This document shows, in pieces, positions 4,916 through 24,829 of a stretch of DNA of 25,889 bases (position 1 is its first letter; each line of letters begins with the position of its first letter). Position numbers and translations under genes: made by a program. Below the pieces are notes generated by a model. The model ran no database searches and had not been told where the DNA came from. It worked only from the letters and a program-made list of their open reading frames with translations. This DNA comes from a virus (taxonomy: Duplodnaviria; Caudoviricetes): positions 1 to 25,889 of IMG/VR virus record IMGVR_UViG_3300020045_005572; one strand, 5' to 3'.

Positions 4916-5235
4916 TTTCGCACCTTCACTTTCTAAGCTCCCAGCTACTGCATTGGAGATTGTATCCAGCGTTCTTAAGTGTTTGAAGATCAATCTCATC
5001 TGGGTTACTTTCTTCCGCATCGCAAATTGGATATATTTCTTTTACGCTGCCAAATTCCCAAGATTCAAGTGTTTCCGATCCCCAGTCGCTCCAATGCTTA
5101 CAGCTAAAGCAATTCTTCAATTCCGGGTTTTTCTTGCAACTATGTCTATCTGGCGTTCTAAAATCCTTCCCGCAATGTTCACAATGATATCTGGTTACTG
5201 CTTTCATTGCTTTGGTTTCAGGCATTTTCGCACCT
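4911..5235. repeat. 15-bp direct repeat GGCATTTTCGCACCT at 4911-4925 and 5221-5235
   Basis: Exact copies; on the minus strand each reads AGGTGCGAAAATGCC, the RBS plus start codon of two successive genes. Confidence 0.8.
4926..5225 (-). CDS. Zn-finger-like hypothetical phage protein
   Basis: 'YHCEHCGK', 'CKKNPELKNCFSCKH'; start MPETK with GAGGTG RBS. Confidence 0.7.
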   Translation of the reverse strand: MPETKAMKAVTRYHCEHCGKDFRTPDRHSCKKNPELKNCFSCKHWSDWGSETLESWEFGSVKEIYPICDAEESNPDEIDLQTLKNAGYNLQCSSWELRK

Positions 5236-5565
5236 CTCAAAATAAAACTCGAGTTTTTTTGGTGTTGGCGTCACAACCCCAAATCTCACAGCGTTTTTAT
5301 AAGTCACACTATCCCGCATCAATCGCTCGTGCCACTTTCCAATTTCCTCTCGGAATTCTTCGATGCCATACGTGGATTTATAATGATTGCAAGACCTGCA
5401 GGCAGGCAACATATTTTCTTTTTCATCCAAACCGCCCCGATTTATTGGGAAAACATGATCCACTTGCATATCTGCGATACTTATCTCGATACCGCAATAT
5501 GCACAATGGCCACCGGTTTTATTGTGGATTTCTTCCCTTTCCACTTTGCTCAGTTTTTTACGCAT
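5218..5565 (-). CDS. HNH endonuclease
   Basis: 'HCAYCG...VDHVFPINRGG...NMLPACRSCNHYK'; start MRKKL overlaps the thyX stop (TAATG). Confidence 0.88.
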   Translation of the reverse strand: MRKKLSKVEREEIHNKTGGHCAYCGIEISIADMQVDHVFPINRGGLDEKENMLPACRSCNHYKSTYGIEEFREEIGKWHERLMRDSVTYKNAVRFGVVTPTPKKLEFYFERCENA

Positions 5566-6248
5566 TATTTCCCCTCCTTGCAACTCATTTCCCCCTCTGG
5601 GCACGAGCCACTCACACACGGCGCACCCGCATTTTTAAACAATATCGGTGCAATTTGCTTGCACTGTTTGAGCATCTGTTCAGCCATTTCCCGGATTTCC
5701 CATTGCGCCCGGTTGCAACAGCGCTTGTTGAAAAAGTGTAGCAACGTGCGAACGTTCATGGTGCAAACGATGGATGTGGTGCAGGCACCAGGCAGCACAT
5801 ACCGGGCATCTTCTTGAGCCTGCTCTTTGGTTCTGCCGGCTGCGATTAATTTAAGCACTAATTGTGAATATGCAAAATTGATCTCGTACATAACGTCTTT
5901 AAAATCTTCCTTATCGTCTGGATCATCAGCTATGAACGGCGGTATTACATAATCAAACTCGCACTCGCTCACATATCTCTGACTTTTTTGGCTATAAGAC
6001 GCTATCCGGTGACGGACCAACTGGTGCGATAACGCCCTACTCACCCCATCAATCCCGAATGTGAACGAAGCGTGTTCAAGTGGGCTTTCGTGGCCCATAT
6101 CCACCAATTTCGTCAATAGTTTCTCGACCGCTTCATCCGTCAGGTTCTCCATGATTTTGTCGACGGGGCTGCTGGAATAGCATAATTTGGCAGCGGCGGC
6201 CACCAACCGCTCAGGGTTTGGGGTATGTTCTAATATTTTTACTTGCAT
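5565..6248 (-). CDS. thyX: FAD-dependent thymidylate synthase
   Basis: ThyX signature 'RHRIASYSQKSQR', plus 'GHESPLEH', 'EDARYVLP', 'RAQWEIR'. Confidence 0.96.
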   Translation of the reverse strand: MQVKILEHTPNPERLVAAAAKLCYSSSPVDKIMENLTDEAVEKLLTKLVDMGHESPLEHASFTFGIDGVSRALSHQLVRHRIASYSQKSQRYVSECEFDYVIPPFIADDPDDKEDFKDVMYEINFAYSQLVLKLIAAGRTKEQAQEDARYVLPGACTTSIVCTMNVRTLLHFFNKRCCNRAQWEIREMAEQMLKQCKQIAPILFKNAGAPCVSGSCPEGEMSCKEGK

Positions 6249-14000: not shown

Positions 14001-14438
14001 TTAGAAAGGTATATCATCATCATCTGCCATCAGGTGGAAGTCTTCGTCCATGTCCATTACTGACATGTTCGCGCTATCGCTTGATTGCTGGGTGTTGGCG
14101 TTGGCACTACTGCCGCCGTCCTTCTTACTCTCAAGGAATTCTAATTCCTCAACAACAACCTCAGTTACCCAGCGTTTTGTGCCATCTTGGGCGTCGTAAC
14201 TTCTTACCTGTAACCGGCCAACGATACCGATCCGGCTTCCCTTCTTAGTGTACTGGCCTAATACCTCCGCCGTTTTTCCCCATGCCTGGCAGTTAATAAA
14301 ATCAGCTTCTTTCTGGCCGTCCTTGTTCTTGAAGCGACGGTCCACGGCCAGCGTAAAACTGGCCACGGCCTTGCCGGATGTGGTGTTTTTTACGTCAGGA
14401 TCTCTCGTAAGTCTTCCAACTAAAATTACCTTATTTAT
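14001..14438 (-). CDS. ssb: Single-stranded DNA-binding protein with a probable ATA start
   Basis: The frame extends 24 codons upstream of the tracked GTG to (I)NKVILVGRLTRDP; 'ADFINCQAWGKTAE'; acidic tail 'DDDIPF'. Confidence 0.93.
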   Translation of the reverse strand: MNKVILVGRLTRDPDVKNTTSGKAVASFTLAVDRRFKNKDGQKEADFINCQAWGKTAEVLGQYTKKGSRIGIVGRLQVRSYDAQDGTKRWVTEVVVEELEFLESKKDGGSSANANTQQSSDSANMSVMDMDEDFHLMADDDDIPF

Positions 14439-14573: not shown

Positions 14574-15279
14574 TTAACATACTTCCACCTCAGCCCCTGT
14601 CACTTCCTGCACCCGCCGTTTAAACTCATCCTCGTTCGAATTGCCATCTGACATATGCAGTAGGTAAATCTTTTTCAATTGGCTGGTATCGTTCGCCTTA
14701 ATAAATTCCAATAATGTTTCGATACTCATATGCGACCGTATAACCCGATTTTTATGAGCCTCTGGTATACTTCCGTTTTTTACGTTTTCCTTGATGATTT
14801 CCGTCGAATAATTGCATTCAGCCATAATGATGGATAACCGGTCAAAGGTATATTTCAAATAATAGGTGTCGGTGAAGAATAATAGCCGTTCGCCGGTCGC
14901 CGTGCTTTCGATCAGAAATCCCAATGGCTCCGCTGCGTCGTGCTGGACATCGAACGGTAATATCTGGAAACTTCCAATTTTCCGGGTGATCTGTTTGTAA
15001 AGAACATTTGCCCGGTGGTGATGGGATAACCCCAATAGTTCCAACGTCCCTTTACTGCTGTAAATCTCCACGCCTTTTTTAATCAGATCCTTGGCTGCTT
15101 TTGAATGGTCAAAGATGTTCGTGGCTTATTAAACAACCATCGATTTTATGCAACTGGAACTGCAATGCTTTCTGAATTTCCCGTGCCGGAACCCCGCATT
15201 CCAGCAGCAGGGAGGTTTGCCCATCGCTGATGCGATAGGCGTTTCCTTTGCTAGAAGATGCTATAACTTTAATTTCCAT
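14574..15279 (-). CDS. MBL-fold metallo-hydrolase (YycJ/WalJ-like putative exonuclease), split by a +1 frameshift at 15114-15108
   Basis: Frame 0 (15279-15109): MEIKVIASSSKGNAY...GCLISHEHL-stop. The +1 frame from 15110 continues DHSKAAKDLIKKG into the tracked 165-aa ORF ('HDA', 'TDT', 'ECNY', 'LLHMSDGNS'). The joined product is 234 aa with an intact HEHLDH. Confidence 0.85.
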
Positions 15280-15282
15280 AGG

Positions 15283-16146
15283 TTATAGAAAATCCGGCTG
15301 GCCATAGTCCGCTTCGGCCTCGGCCTGTTCTGCTGCTAGAATCTGTTGTTTTTCGGCTTCGGACGGTTCGCTGGTGACAGGTTCCGGGTCGATCTCATAT
15401 TCAACTTCTTTAAAATCAATTGTTTCTTTATTGGCATTGGCGTCAATTTCTCTCTGGACTTTTGATTCTTCATTCTCGGACGCCATTACTTCCTGCATTT
15501 CGCTGGACATAACGCCGTAGGTACCAATCAGCCGGCGCAATACTGTTTTAATGGCCATCTTGTCAAATTCTTTAAACCATGGCGTCCCGCCTTTACCGCT
15601 CTTGTAAGCCTGGCTGTATTTCTTGCCCCACGCTTCCACTTCTTCTTTTGACATATACAAGGTCTTTTCGAACCCGTTAAGCAGTTTGAAATAAGCAAAG
15701 TACCCGATGATTGTTTTTTCGCCTTTACTATCCAGTTCTACCTCGCCGGATAGATCAAGGTCGCCTGATAGTTTGTTTTGGCCAATATATTCGCCCTCAT
15801 AGACAACATCGGCATTGATGTTTCGATACATGCCGGAACGCTGGGCCAATTGGATCAAGCCTTTGTAGCCAATCGTGAAAGTAGGGACGTTATTGTAAGG
15901 AACCACATAAGCGAACCCCAGGGACTTAACCAGTGGTAATTTCAGCGACGCCGCCTTTAAGCACTCCATGGCCACCGCCTGAGGATCGCACTTTTGCAAG
16001 TACGGATCCCCGGAATAAAGGTCGATCATGGAACTAAGAAACGCCCCGCTATTCTCCTTCAAACTATTTTTAATCTGCGCCCGGATCGTCTTGTCGTTCA
16101 GGACGCTCTTAAATTCGTCCACTCTTGCTATGCTATTTGTTGCCAT
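15283..16146 (-). CDS. recT: RecT-family single-strand annealing recombinase
   Basis: 'LGFAYVVPY...FTIGYKGLIQLAQRSGMYRNINADVVYEGE', 'PWFKEFDKMAIKTVLRRL'. Confidence 0.92.
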   Translation of the reverse strand: MATNSIARVDEFKSVLNDKTIRAQIKNSLKENSGAFLSSMIDLYSGDPYLQKCDPQAVAMECLKAASLKLPLVKSLGFAYVVPYNNVPTFTIGYKGLIQLAQRSGMYRNINADVVYEGEYIGQNKLSGDLDLSGEVELDSKGEKTIIGYFAYFKLLNGFEKTLYMSKEEVEAWGKKYSQAYKSGKGGTPWFKEFDKMAIKTVLRRLIGTYGVMSSEMQEVMASENEESKVQREIDANANKETIDFKEVEYEIDPEPVTSEPSEAEKQQILAAEQAEAEADYGQPDFL

Positions 16147-18104
16147 TCTTCTTTACCTCCATTTATTTGTAATTCTTTGTATTTTTCGTCAACTACTAAT
16201 TTAATCACTTGCAACTCCGTTTCTAACAACTGGGTAACACTTTCGGCGTTGTCCACGATCAGCGGCATCTCCGCGCCCCAATGATTCGACAGTGCATCGA
16301 TGATCTCGATACCGGCATTAATCTTGCCGGCATTGTTGGCGGTTCCAAATGGGATCAGTCCCTCGGCACATGGCACCATAACCTCGCAGCACTCTTTTAG
16401 GCCACCGTTTATCTGATCATCGAATAACTTGAACCGGACGTTTTTAAACCGGTTATTAATGCTTTCAGTCAGCATGGATACCTTGGCCTTGATGAACTGT
16501 TCGCACAGGAAAACATTGGCTTCCAGCTTTTCGTATTCAGCGGCCAGACCTTCCTCTTGAAGTTTCAGCTCTGCGATCCGCAATTCCTGTTTTTCGGCTG
16601 TTTTGTAATCAGAAAGTTTATCTTTCAGGCCGGATACTTTGGCCTTAATCTGGTCGATTTCGCCGTTTAATTTGGCAATCTGTGGAGCAATATCGGCAAC
16701 TGGGGTGTTGATCTTATTGGTAATTTCATTCAACTCAGACTGTAACGCCTTGCCTATCGCCGTAGCTGCGAATGGAACCGGATCTTTGACTAATCCAAGG
16801 GCTGCCTGGTGGGCTTGTTGCAACTCTTTGAGTCCGTCGCCGGCTTTAATAAGATTTGCTTCTTCCAGTTTAAGATCAGCGACCAGCTTTTCCAGAATGG
16901 CCTTGCTGCAATTTTCAGATCCTTCTTTATTAATTGCCTCAAGCTGTTTTGACTTGCTGAGATTAAAAGCTGCTTTCGCTTCTTCAATCTTTTCTAGTTG
17001 CAACTCCTGTCCACATGTTGGGCAAATCTTCTCACCATCCCATTGCTGTGCTGCAACTGCACGATATTTCCCCGATAATTTAACTTGCTGTTCTCGCTTA
17101 TAAGCGATTGTCGATTCAAATTCAAGCACTTTTTTTCTTTGGCTATTGAAGGTAATCTCAGCATTTCTCACCAGATCCGCACTTTTGATCAGGGCCTCCG
17201 ACTGTTCAGACATTTCTTGATTCTGCAATCTGGCATACTCAGTCGATTTCTGGATTAGTTTGTTATTGATCTCTTTCTTCTTTTCGGTCAGAGCATCGTC
17301 GACCTTGCCGTTTTCAAGATTCAGCTTTTGTCTTTGCAGTTCGGCAATGTCTGCTTCATGCTCGATGATTTCTTTTTCGAAAGTTTTCGGGTAAATGTCG
17401 CCAACATCCGGTTTCGCCTTTTCAGCTTCATCAATCCGTGACGGGATGCTTTTCAGATCCTCATTGATCTTGGTCATGGATGACTTTGAAATCTTCAGAT
17501 AATCATCAATGGTAATCTTCTGACCATTTTCGCCGTTAATGATAGTTGCTAGCGGTGCCAGCTCTTCACTGGATGCAATGACCTGATCATCGGTGACGTC
17601 TCCACAAACTGACAGCAATAGTTCCCGCCGATCCGTCCATTTAAGATCTACTGGGAAGAAAAAGGGATTGGTCAAGACCTTGGCCATTTCAGGACTACAG
17701 ATCTGCTCAATGCGCTTGGCATACTCGCCAGCTTTAACCGGGATATCATTCAAATAATATTCAGTAGTGTGGCCAGTAAAAGTACTTTTCGATGCGCCCC
17801 GCTTTTTAGTCCAGATCTCCATGAATTCTTTTTTAAGCTTCAACCGCTGGCCGGTATCTGCGAAGGTCGCCTCCACACTATGAGCTAGGTTATGAACTTC
17901 TTCTCCGTTGGCGTGTAATGTCTTGGGCGAAAAGTTCTTTCCGCCATCCAACGGCTTGTCATATAGCAGCCAGGTAATGGCGTTGCCGATGGTGGTCTTG
18001 CCGGTAGCATTGTCGCCCCGGACTTCAATGTCCGTCCCATCCGACGTGATTGCCAGAGATTTAATCCCCTGAAAATTTTTGAGTTCTAAAGATAGTAATT
18101 TCAT
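16128..18104 (-). CDS. Rad50/SbcC-like coiled-coil ABC ATPase
   Basis: 'LELKNFQGI', Walker A 'GDNATGKTT', long coiled coil, zinc hook 'CPTCGQ', Walker B 'LIVDNAES'. Confidence 0.88.
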   Translation of the reverse strand: MKLLSLELKNFQGIKSLAITSDGTDIEVRGDNATGKTTIGNAITWLLYDKPLDGGKNFSPKTLHANGEEVHNLAHSVEATFADTGQRLKLKKEFMEIWTKKRGASKSTFTGHTTEYYLNDIPVKAGEYAKRIEQICSPEMAKVLTNPFFFPVDLKWTDRRELLLSVCGDVTDDQVIASSEELAPLATIINGENGQKITIDDYLKISKSSMTKINEDLKSIPSRIDEAEKAKPDVGDIYPKTFEKEIIEHEADIAELQRQKLNLENGKVDDALTEKKKEINNKLIQKSTEYARLQNQEMSEQSEALIKSADLVRNAEITFNSQRKKVLEFESTIAYKREQQVKLSGKYRAVAAQQWDGEKICPTCGQELQLEKIEEAKAAFNLSKSKQLEAINKEGSENCSKAILEKLVADLKLEEANLIKAGDGLKELQQAHQAALGLVKDPVPFAATAIGKALQSELNEITNKINTPVADIAPQIAKLNGEIDQIKAKVSGLKDKLSDYKTAEKQELRIAELKLQEEGLAAEYEKLEANVFLCEQFIKAKVSMLTESINNRFKNVRFKLFDDQINGGLKECCEVMVPCAEGLIPFGTANNAGKINAGIEIIDALSNHWGAEMPLIVDNAESVTQLLETELQVIKLVVDEKYKELQINGGKEEWQQIA

Positions 18105-23275: not shown

Positions 23276-24061
23276 TTGGATTATGAACATGTAAAAGAAA
23301 TAGAGCGGCCAATAGGAAATGGATGTACAAAACCATTACTTGCACGCTTAAATAATGACATCCCGGTTGTTATTAAATTGTTCAACAACGTCGAGGGCAA
23401 TAAAACACTAATAAACGAACTTGTTTGTTATAAAATTGCGAAGTTGCTTAAATTGCCAATCCCAAATGCAATGCCATGTTTTATTGATTCCAATACCATT
23501 GACGGATTTAATGAGATTAAACCTGAAAATTATGGAGTGGCCTTTGCTTCCATGTACCTAGAAAAATCAACACCATTAAATCCGTTTGTCATCAGGAAGC
23601 TCTCAAATCTTGATGACTTTTATAAATTGCTGGTCTTTGACCATCTTATTTACAACAAAGACAGAAACATCAATAATTTGATTCTCCGTTTTAAGAAAAA
23701 TGATATGTCATTCTATCTGATTGATCATAGTCATGTATTTAAGAATGAAACAATATGGGATAAATATTGCTTTCAAACCGGAATAGCGACGTTTGACGTA
23801 CGAGATACCGAGATTTTAAACTCAAATCGCGATGCCTACAACATGTTTTACAGTCATCTATCAGTGTCCAAAGAAAAACTGACTGAATGCGCAAAACTGT
23901 TTGATGAAACGCTATCCTATGATATACTATCCGAGGTACTAAAATGCATTCCACCCCAATGGGGGATGACGCTTGAGGATTCGATTGCATTATTGGATTA
24001 TCTCGATTATCGATTAAACAATCTGGAAACAGTCTGCAATACTATTTACGAAAACCATTAA
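23276..24061 (+). CDS. HipA-like (PI3K/PI4K-fold) kinase
   Basis: Gly loop 'GNGCTKP', 'VVIK', 'LINELVC', catalytic 'FDHLIYNKDRNINNL', Mg-binding 'LIDHSHVF', C-terminal 'IPPQW'; TTG start with AAGGAG RBS. Confidence 0.85.
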   Translation: MDYEHVKEIERPIGNGCTKPLLARLNNDIPVVIKLFNNVEGNKTLINELVCYKIAKLLKLPIPNAMPCFIDSNTIDGFNEIKPENYGVAFASMYLEKSTPLNPFVIRKLSNLDDFYKLLVFDHLIYNKDRNINNLILRFKKNDMSFYLIDHSHVFKNETIWDKYCFQTGIATFDVRDTEILNSNRDAYNMFYSHLSVSKEKLTECAKLFDETLSYDILSEVLKCIPPQWGMTLEDSIALLDYLDYRLNNLETVCNTIYENH

Positions 24062-24073
24062 GGAGGTTCCAAA

Positions 24074-24829
24074 ATGAACAAGATACAATTCACATCTTTA
24101 AAGTATTACAATTCAATCATATCTGAAGAATGTCTTTATGTTGGTATCCTTTTTAATGATCTAACAACAAAAAAAAGAACCTTCAAAACGATCCAGAACT
24201 TTAAAAGATTGGCGACTTTTGACGATGAGATCGATATAGATTTTGTTAAACTGTATCTCCAAGGCATTCAGTACGAAATAGAGAACACGTTGCTTAATTG
24301 CCGCAATGAATTTCAGATTGAAGATTACATAAGAAGATATGCAAACGAGTTTAGATTTTCAAAAATAACCACTGTCGAGACGGATGATATTGATTTCGTT
24401 GAGAACACGAGTAAGCTATACTTAAAATTTGATTATACAAAAAGGCACCGCCTAAACAAAGAAGAAGAGTTAAGGCAAATTAGAACCATTTTGAAATCAG
24501 CAAATATCAAGTATTCCAGCGAACCAATCAATGGTTATTACAACGAAACGATACGTTACGATTACGTCGTCAATGATTATTTAATTAAATTATTTTCATT
24601 TGAAGATAAAAAGAAAATAAGTAAAATGACGAGCTCTGCGCGCAACTGGTCTTTTATTGCAGATGAAGTAGGCGATAAATATAAAACACTATTCTTTTAC
24701 GACACGCGATTGCCGGATGATCCGGACTATGATGTCATCATTCAAATTTTAGAAAAGCATGCTCATAGGGTGTTCCCGATTCAAGAAGGTCTGGAATTTT
24801 TAATTACCAACCACGAAAAAACAGCATAA
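24074..24829 (+). CDS. DUF3037-like protein, partner of the kinase
   Basis: N-terminal 'SLKYYNSIISEECLYVGILF' resembles the DUF3037 Y-x6-E-x3-VG motif; 12 bp after the kinase with an AGGAGG RBS. Confidence 0.7.
   Translation: MNKIQFTSLKYYNSIISEECLYVGILFNDLTTKKRTFKTIQNFKRLATFDDEIDIDFVKLYLQGIQYEIENTLLNCRNEFQIEDYIRRYANEFRFSKITTVETDDIDFVENTSKLYLKFDYTKRHRLNKEEELRQIRTILKSANIKYSSEPINGYYNETIRYDYVVNDYLIKLFSFEDKKKISKMTSSARNWSFIADEVGDKYKTLFFYDTRLPDDPDYDVIIQILEKHAHRVFPIQEGLEFLITNHEKTA

Follow-up and report, generated by a model that had tools for sequence, protein, structure and literature searches.

The window analyzed here, an entire viral contig of 25.9 kb (25,889 nt), carries a gene for an MBL-fold hydrolase that is interrupted inside its catalytic HxHxDH motif by the heptamer CTT-TGA-C. 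This break is most likely a programmed, prfB-type +1 frameshift and not a mutation or an error, given its presence in 53 divergent clusters of homologs, the CTTT spacer found in nine out of nine family hits of a spacer control, purifying selection on both halves of the gene, and enrichment of CAT and UGA-C at the site; on these sequence features, programmed recoding at CTT-TGA-C appears highly probable. We also consider it quite probable that the insert originated through a homing endonuclease, and the reading as a whole, namely, that a prfB-type +1 slip would restore the enzyme and that the insert would be the immunity mark of a lost HNH homing endonuclease, seems probable on balance.

The minus strand reads AGC CAC GAA CAT CTT TGA C CAT TCA, which confirms the letters of CTTTGAC at 15114-15108 in the HxHxDH motif given in the preliminary description. 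The two products proposed there were likewise reproduced: in frame 0, translation from ATG 15279 yields a 56-aa peptide with the SHEHL-stop end, and +1 reading through the site yields 234 aa, continuing D-H-S-K (SHEHL-DHSK). The +1 frame is uninterrupted from shortly 5' of the site to TAA 14576-14574; two stops shut it five codons 5' of the site, and its first start is GTG 15071, none being present ahead of the D57-H58 codons. Both halves match phrog_392, at adjoining profile positions. The features, in the direction of transcription, are the following.

16128..18104, minus strand: SbcC/SMC-like coiled-coil ATPase, the first gene of a conserved ATPase-RecT-MBL module
15283..16146, minus strand: recT, single-strand annealing protein, abutting the MBL start
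15109..15279, minus strand: ORF1, the N-terminal 56 codons of the MBL-fold hydrolase, H-E-H-L then TGA (phrog_392 positions 6-61, E 1e-18)
15108..15123, minus strand: putative recoding signal CAC GAA CAT CTT TGA C (E-site CAT, P-site CTT, UGA-C), with one T more than in in-frame relatives
14574..15110, minus strand: ORF2 (+1 frame), 178 aa from D57-H58 to the C-terminus (phrog_392 positions 63-246, E 4e-54), holding the remaining invariant residues H113, D137, H183, and H208
14001..14438, minus strand: ssb, downstream of the MBL gene (phrog_44, E 7e-59)

The early operon order is hence SbcC-like ATPase, recT, MBL-fold hydrolase, ssb, and the ATPase lies near 27 of the 45 shifted loci that have enough flank. 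The slot between recT and the MBL gene, filled by an HNH endonuclease in many shifted relatives, is empty in the window. The named in-frame homologs at 80-84% come from Acetobacterium, and we infer from this that the host is an Acetobacterium relative. The ssb frame opens with ATA-AAT-AAG-GTA (I-N-K-V-I-L-V-G) at 14438-14436 of the minus strand, with no ATG and with a purine-rich stretch before it, as would result from an unusual start codon, from mutation, or from an error. Elsewhere in the window (23276-24829, plus strand), a HipA-like kinase (PF20613) is followed by a 251-aa phrog_7610 protein of unknown family next to the repressor, possibly a defence or toxin-antitoxin pair.

The assignment of the enzyme to the MBL-fold hydrolases (PF12706/PHROG 392) relies on the HxHxDH motif, the downstream His/Asp ligands, and the profile match, all of which are present. 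A natural homolog, 90% identical (P0002), passes PF12706 (41 vs. the cut-off of 27), and its predicted fold has a mean pLDDT of 94.7. The pair recT-Lactamase_B_2 has been described in Firmicutes prophages where no other exonuclease is recognisable (PMC8093625), and WalJ/YycJ of Bacillus subtilis is listed as an MBL 5'-3' exonuclease (PMC9836290). Chromosomal homologs (about 30% identity) were found in 308 of 400 genomes searched; in Clostridia, the two of them examined for context adjoin rlmH, one standing after murA. The present gene resembles the recT-Lactamase_B_2, PHROG 392, and WalJ genes in that an MBL gene lies beside recT and HxHxDH and the further ligands are invariant, and the passages on recT-Lactamase_B_2 and WalJ in the two papers cited make no mention of recoding (PMC8093625, PMC9836290). 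Because of the recT-Lactamase_B_2 context, the listing of WalJ and the chromosomal homologs, the enzyme is probably a WalJ-like exonuclease partner of RecT. The earlier label of a recombination nuclease thus agrees with the RecT gene context and the likeness to WalJ, and nuclease activity is a prediction from these two. An Apyc1-like annotation goes back to a match of limited length (E 3e-6 to 4e-4, over profile residues 16-65), and PF23023 was seen just among precomputed hits.

The heptamer CTTTGAC has nine copies in the window; the bare heptamer is frequent by chance, and the weight is carried by its position and recurrence. A single T inserted by mutation or sequencing error had been mentioned in the preliminary description as giving the same picture, and continuity of all close homologs as pointing that way. 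The best 80 viral loci include 79 continuous ones, as a private mutation or error in the window contig would predict, yet the remaining one (L003, 90% aa identity) is broken identically. The same break recurs in L375, in a Logan contig from run X4 (independent, less than 90% identical, with identical letters over the site and no gap), and in 52 other clusters, which refutes the error explanation at the family level and leaves it a negligible probability. Contigs from runs X1 and X6 have one base fewer at the site. In scans with the CTT-TGA-C pattern, family members made up 14 out of 18 and 28 out of 34 viral loci, 51 out of 69 metagenome loci, and six of the 120 matches listed in a genome-locus scan. 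Clustered at 95% identity, the 95 full-length shifted rows fall into 53 groups (35 at 60%), their median pairwise identity being 40% (range 24-93), so that the count over divergent homologs suggested earlier gives 53 clusters with the identical CTT-TGA-C break at HxHL|DH.

The controls point in the same direction. With any four bases permitted as the spacer, CTTT occurred in nine out of nine family hits, and with two bases the family accounted for none of three hits. The in-frame HEH-CTN-GAC scan retrieved family genes in 26 out of 29 loci, CTT being used in only five, compared with 14 loci for the comparable shifted pattern. In a survey free of any pattern, 78 of the best 120 short homologs ended exactly one residue past HxH, this residue being Leu in 64, Gly in nine, Tyr in three, and Phe and Arg in one each, and the ends of the other 42 were scattered; with a Leu-biased profile, used in an earlier survey, 92 of the best 120 ended there. 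Nine short homologs of 55-56 aa with the HxHG end (P0213, P0224, P0250, P0253, P0257, P0262, P0266, P0272, P0277) likely represent a class of Gly-to-Gly hops, like L460.

The interrupted alleles are a minority, since among 400 genomes sampled regardless of the motif eight of nine prophage-type copies are continuous, the ninth being differently broken at the same motif; all 20 chromosomal homologs examined are continuous as well. In-frame homologs exist at 89-92% identity to the window clade. On the tree, shifted alleles are intermixed with in-frame ones, and 22 changes are counted, at least ten of them forced (20 changes when the variable motif residue is masked), the tree being a quick IQ-TREE one and the counts not separating gain from loss. 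In the window clade, in-frame L001 is nested among three shifted rows, which is compatible with reversion or recombination. No cultured phage with CTT-TGA-C was retrieved by short blastn or seen among the rows listed (two lists of 60) out of 236 tblastn records, and a search of sequencing runs listed no run carrying more than 14% of the window's words and no RNA run. A two-piece match from S. aureus was set aside as an unrelated contig with several scattered breaks. Two genes of a different, beta-CASP-type MBL family (L124:2302-3724, about 470 aa, Pfam Beta-Casp and RMMBL; and L255) have the identical CTT-TGA-C break at HxHL|DH; no endonuclease of the shift-linked subfamily was seen near either (the L255 flank is short).

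Several features of the site resemble a working recoding signal. The His codon ahead of CTT is CAT in 40 of 41 shifted clusters (70% level) vs. seven of 25 in-frame ones, the gene-wide fraction being 0.55; of 51 metagenome loci, 50 have UGA-C as the stop, C and T both being permitted, and in the viral UGA-T scan the family contributed one of 12 hits. It has been reported that shifting at the RF2 site is greatest with A:U pairs at positions 2 and 3 of the E-site (PMC2377451), that UGA-C is a poor terminator (PMC12421855), and that CUU-U is the most efficient shift site (PMC5009743); by analogy, both CAT before CTT and UGA-C would favour shifting. The codon signature could partly stem from cassette descent or DNA recognition instead of recoding. 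As had been stated before, no internal Shine-Dalgarno (SD) element is present: the median duplex energy is 0, same as in in-frame genes. Likewise, no RNA structure above shuffles was detected beside the site (folding z-scores from -0.7 to +1.5 in six stretches). Since the SD-less CUUUGA of Flavobacterium shifts at about 7% and loss of the SD from prfB is common in Firmicutes_A (PMC10798248), the absent SD should be no obstacle to shifting; the yield would be a few percent. The SD at the gene start is stronger in endonuclease-linked copies (-7.8 vs. -3.9 kcal/mol, counted without tree correction) and weak in the window (-3.3), where the MBL start may rely on coupling to recT.

The protein is under constraint on both sides of the break. 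Pooling six disjoint shifted pairs gives a dN/dS of 0.11 in the N-half and of 0.15 in the C-half, in line with the selection on both halves that the preliminary description had proposed to look for, and all eight invariant His/Asp residues are kept in the aligned shifted rows. The unshifted 56-aa product has only H53 and H55, two of these eight residues, and so would be inactive, in agreement with the earlier suggestion that it is catalytically dead. Restoration of the frame at another level, i.e., by transcriptional slippage, RNA editing or a suppressor tRNA, or by assembly of the two polypeptides, has a parallel in the MobA system with its split, reassembling enzyme (bioRxiv 10.1101/2022.08.31.505936). 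We regard it as very unlikely: the T run is just three long, no tRNA gene was found in the window or in 21 loci (flanks only), and ORF2 has no start ahead of D57-H58, so that re-initiation would drop two metal ligands; the matched codons at the stop-hops described below indicate P-site tRNA re-pairing.

Other kinds of break occur at the same codon. In the cultured Cellulophaga phage phi18:3 (L419:1201-1950, KC821620.1), the gene is annotated as two CDS and its motif reads CAC CAA TGA CAG GAC CAT (Gln-stop-Gln); phi46:3 is here 99.9% identical to phi18:3, and phi13:2 is continuous. A scan for HxH-NNN-TGA-N(1-4)-GAC gave at least 36 family rows among the 120 matches listed: CAG-TGA-CAA (six), CAA-TGA-CAG (two), CTT-TGA-CTA (one), GGC-TGA-A-GGA (one), and TAT-TGA-C (26). 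Among the matches listed with a stop and a three-base spacer, the flanking codons are synonymous in nine out of nine family rows (three lineages) vs. none of 27 non-family rows. A hop between synonymous codons would restore HxHxDH exactly, and readthrough would not; CAA-TGA-CAG, CAG-TGA-CAA, CTT-TGA-CTA, and CTC-TGA-CTT (the last from phage MT838995.1, see below) therefore look like natural stop-hops. Separately, a prophage-type homolog found without a pattern (L397:2020-2040, minus strand) has TAA and one base right after the second His; it is a single case, with an imperfect landing codon.

These variants also bear on the explanation that the immunity scar simply kills the gene and the broken allele hitchhikes with the endonuclease, with no useful recoding. 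Linkage to the endonuclease, presented below, requires no translation, and the landing codons are poor in two variants, L397 and TAT-TGA-C, where just two of three bases match (26 rows). The dN/dS values are, however, 0.06-0.16 on both halves, this range being that of the CAG and TAT lineages, the eight invariant residues are retained, and synonymous flanks are found in four out of four in-frame-stop lineages, counting MT838995.1, with a chance of about 0.06 per lineage. We thus assign to a dead scar only a very small probability and favour functional recoding.

The origin of the insert is suggested by the gene next to it in many shifted relatives. Pfam NUMOD4+HNH_3 is encoded immediately upstream of the MBL gene in 11 of 43 shifted loci and in none of 53 in-frame ones. 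With a profile of the endonuclease subfamily and clustering at 95% identity, 18 of 50 shifted and none of 74 in-frame clusters are positive, and at 60% the counts are 12 of 33 vs. none of 30; these exclude loci whose upstream flank is shorter than 300 nt, the profile was built from 11 of the positives, and, as most loci were fetched by broken-motif patterns, an endonuclease beside an intact motif was detectable only in about 110 in-frame loci. The endonuclease is a homolog of PDB 1U3E (E 8e-21), which we take to be I-HmuI, and its HNH active-site motif is matched in 18 out of 20 copies. It also precedes 24 of the 26 TAT-TGA-C rows listed and, in L120, a shifted gene from a distant MBL subfamily, and in 59 out of 59 (redundant) rows with its C-terminal domain a broken motif lies 144-179 nt further on. 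In a prospective test, the best GenBank phage match to this domain alone, MT838995.1, had the motif CAT CTC TGA CTT GAT CAC, a fourth synonymous hop.

Some loci show possible traces of a travelling cassette with a replacement 5' part ending near the resume codon. In L334, L083, L313, and L351, only four of 28 loci, an orphaned MBL 5' stub of 12-46 codons lies upstream of the endonuclease, and a complete second start comes after it. One sharp breakpoint is seen between L098 and L371, identical over 1500 nt upstream and divergent from 9 nt past CTT, which could be an assembly chimera. Endonuclease identity tracks that of the C-half weakly (rho 0.39, vs. 0.60 between the halves), and among tree-independent pairs about three of nine go in the same direction and none in the opposite one (p 0.25, in an underpowered test). 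Lower divergence of the N-half as a homing signature was discarded as unspecific, the same being seen in 15 of the 17 pairs of in-frame genes. In shifted L090, L347, and L369 and in in-frame L287, the upstream slot is occupied by a second ORF resembling an endonuclease, without a Pfam match, unrelated ORFs of L114 and L173 being excluded from these counts.

The subfamily is absent from 32 of 50 shifted clusters. L003 and L375 have no endonuclease, and no match to the subfamily and no stub was found in the window; a stand-alone 133-aa HNH protein at 5218-5619 (minus strand) belongs outside the shift-linked NUMOD4 subfamily. L326 and L350 have the endonuclease, and L363 and L366, shifted and 85-87% identical, are without it, which is compatible with endonuclease loss, the direction being unproven. 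A profile search of 401 genomes of one phylum yielded a single match, without the subfamily C-terminus, beside a terminase-like gene. The window most likely represents a late stage, a scar without its endonuclease.

Taken together, the proposed sequence of events is as follows. The endonuclease would nick the HxHxDH codons of in-frame alleles, where the DNA of the gene is most conserved. It would travel in a cassette together with a new ribosome-binding site, a substitute for the first ~56 codons, and a short insert containing a stop, the terminus of the cassette lying at the DH codons. The insert would spoil the endonuclease target, and the surviving inserts would be those that translation can undo, with a slow UGA and re-pairing of the P-site tRNA just ahead of GAC, either +1 at CTT-T or by a synonymous hop. 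In the window, the extra T would place UGA in the HxHxDH codons, where paused ribosomes would slip +1 (CUU to UUU) and, in a minority of passes, yield the 234-aa enzyme. The CTT-TGA-C form would dominate because a single added T turns CTT GAC (Leu-Asp) into the best bacterial +1 site. The endonuclease may later be lost, with the scar staying or reverting, and dependence of the yield on RF2 would be a by-product.

This last point departs from the preliminary description, where setting the dose of the enzyme via RF2 was put forward as a possible purpose of the shift, a claim that finds no support here. Cleavage immunity is the origin suggested by the linkage to one homing-endonuclease subfamily and by the convergent stop-hop variants. 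With UGA as the stop, the yield would be sensitive to RF2, whether or not this is selected for. The possibility that the shift persists chiefly because it sets or gates the dose through host RF2, the endonuclease being a passenger or a historical source, is unlikely in our estimate but has several observations in its favour: the signal copies that of prfB (NAT CTT TGA C), 32 of 50 shifted clusters, window included, keep the site without the endonuclease, synonymous sites are well diverged (window vs. L003, dS about 0.9-1.3), and every hop variant fetched uses UGA, although the pattern required TGA and the UGA-only use of hops is therefore built in. On the other hand, most homologs are in frame, some at 89-92% identity to the window clade, so that no dose limit is required; the enriched CAU, CUU, and UGA-C all increase the full-length yield, and the stronger start SDs of endonuclease-linked copies likewise argue against dose limitation; and the endonuclease linkage and the orphaned stubs are left unexplained. 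We know of no feedback link between the MBL enzyme and RF2.

The best reading, cleavage immunity followed by recoding, is likely a minimal analogue of the T4 MobA/gene 60 cassette. The T4 gene 60 insert blocks nicking and outlasts the endonuclease, and the origin and purpose of its bypass have been called unique and a puzzle (bioRxiv 10.1101/2022.08.31.505936). Both systems link a stop-containing insert, placed in a conserved part of an enzyme gene, to a free-standing HNH endonuclease encoded beside that gene. A cassette with a replacement gene start and a terminus near the landing codon, an insert that outlasts the endonuclease, and recoding that restores the protein would be further points in common, all of them proposed for the present family; as with MobA, the endonuclease is linked to interrupted and absent from intact alleles, here at the family level, the window itself lacking it. 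They differ in the target (topoisomerase there, an MBL hydrolase of temperate-type phages here), in the size of the insert (1, 4, 6 or 7 nt here vs. 50 there), in that no stimulatory hairpin or mini-SD was found here, and in the convergence of several recoding modes on one codon. With its 1-nt insert and its prfB-type site, the gene of the window is no gene 60 bypass proper. Upstream of TAT-TGA-C genes, the HNH gene is replaced in L495 by an ORF with what we presume to be a GIY-YIG-like motif and is internally deleted in L453; these resemble stages described for MobA.

With prfB the site shares the CUU-UGA-C slippery stop, the NAU codon in the E-site, and the strong preference for C after UGA (PMC10798248, PMC12421855). 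It differs in having no internal SD, which is not universal in prfB either (PMC10798248), in its product, an MBL-fold hydrolase and not a release factor, so that there is no autoregulatory loop, and in its location within a catalytic motif, with C as part of the Asp codon, and patchy distribution in the family. Stop-hops have been known from the synthetic constructs of Weiss et al. (1987), with no natural in-frame case known in 2016 (PMC5009743), whereas the candidates here are natural and under purifying selection (one lineage tested). Recoding in a recT-linked MBL gene was not found in the openly licensed literature searched; the supplementary tables of GeneTack (PMC3711429) could list it.

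The inserts of this family form a graded natural series, 1 to 7 nt long, all at a single codon of the same enzyme, and many of the 56-aa "pseudogene" fragments annotated in databases, of which at least 110 clusters were seen, probably belong to working genes as their halves. Given alleles with and without the interruption that are about 90% identical, and the cultured pair phi18:3/phi13:2, the endonuclease-immunity origin of recoding is directly testable. It seems to us evenly balanced whether one endonuclease family drove the repeated emergence of minimal recoding signals at one codon, i.e., the prfB +1 shift in dozens of lineages together with natural stop-hops (+6) and one hop each of +7 and +4, possibly co-opted later. 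If so, the pressure that endonucleases exert on catalytic motifs would be a general way for new programmed recoding to arise, and endonuclease-free lineages such as that of the window may have co-opted the site, making phage recombination responsive to the efficiency of host termination.
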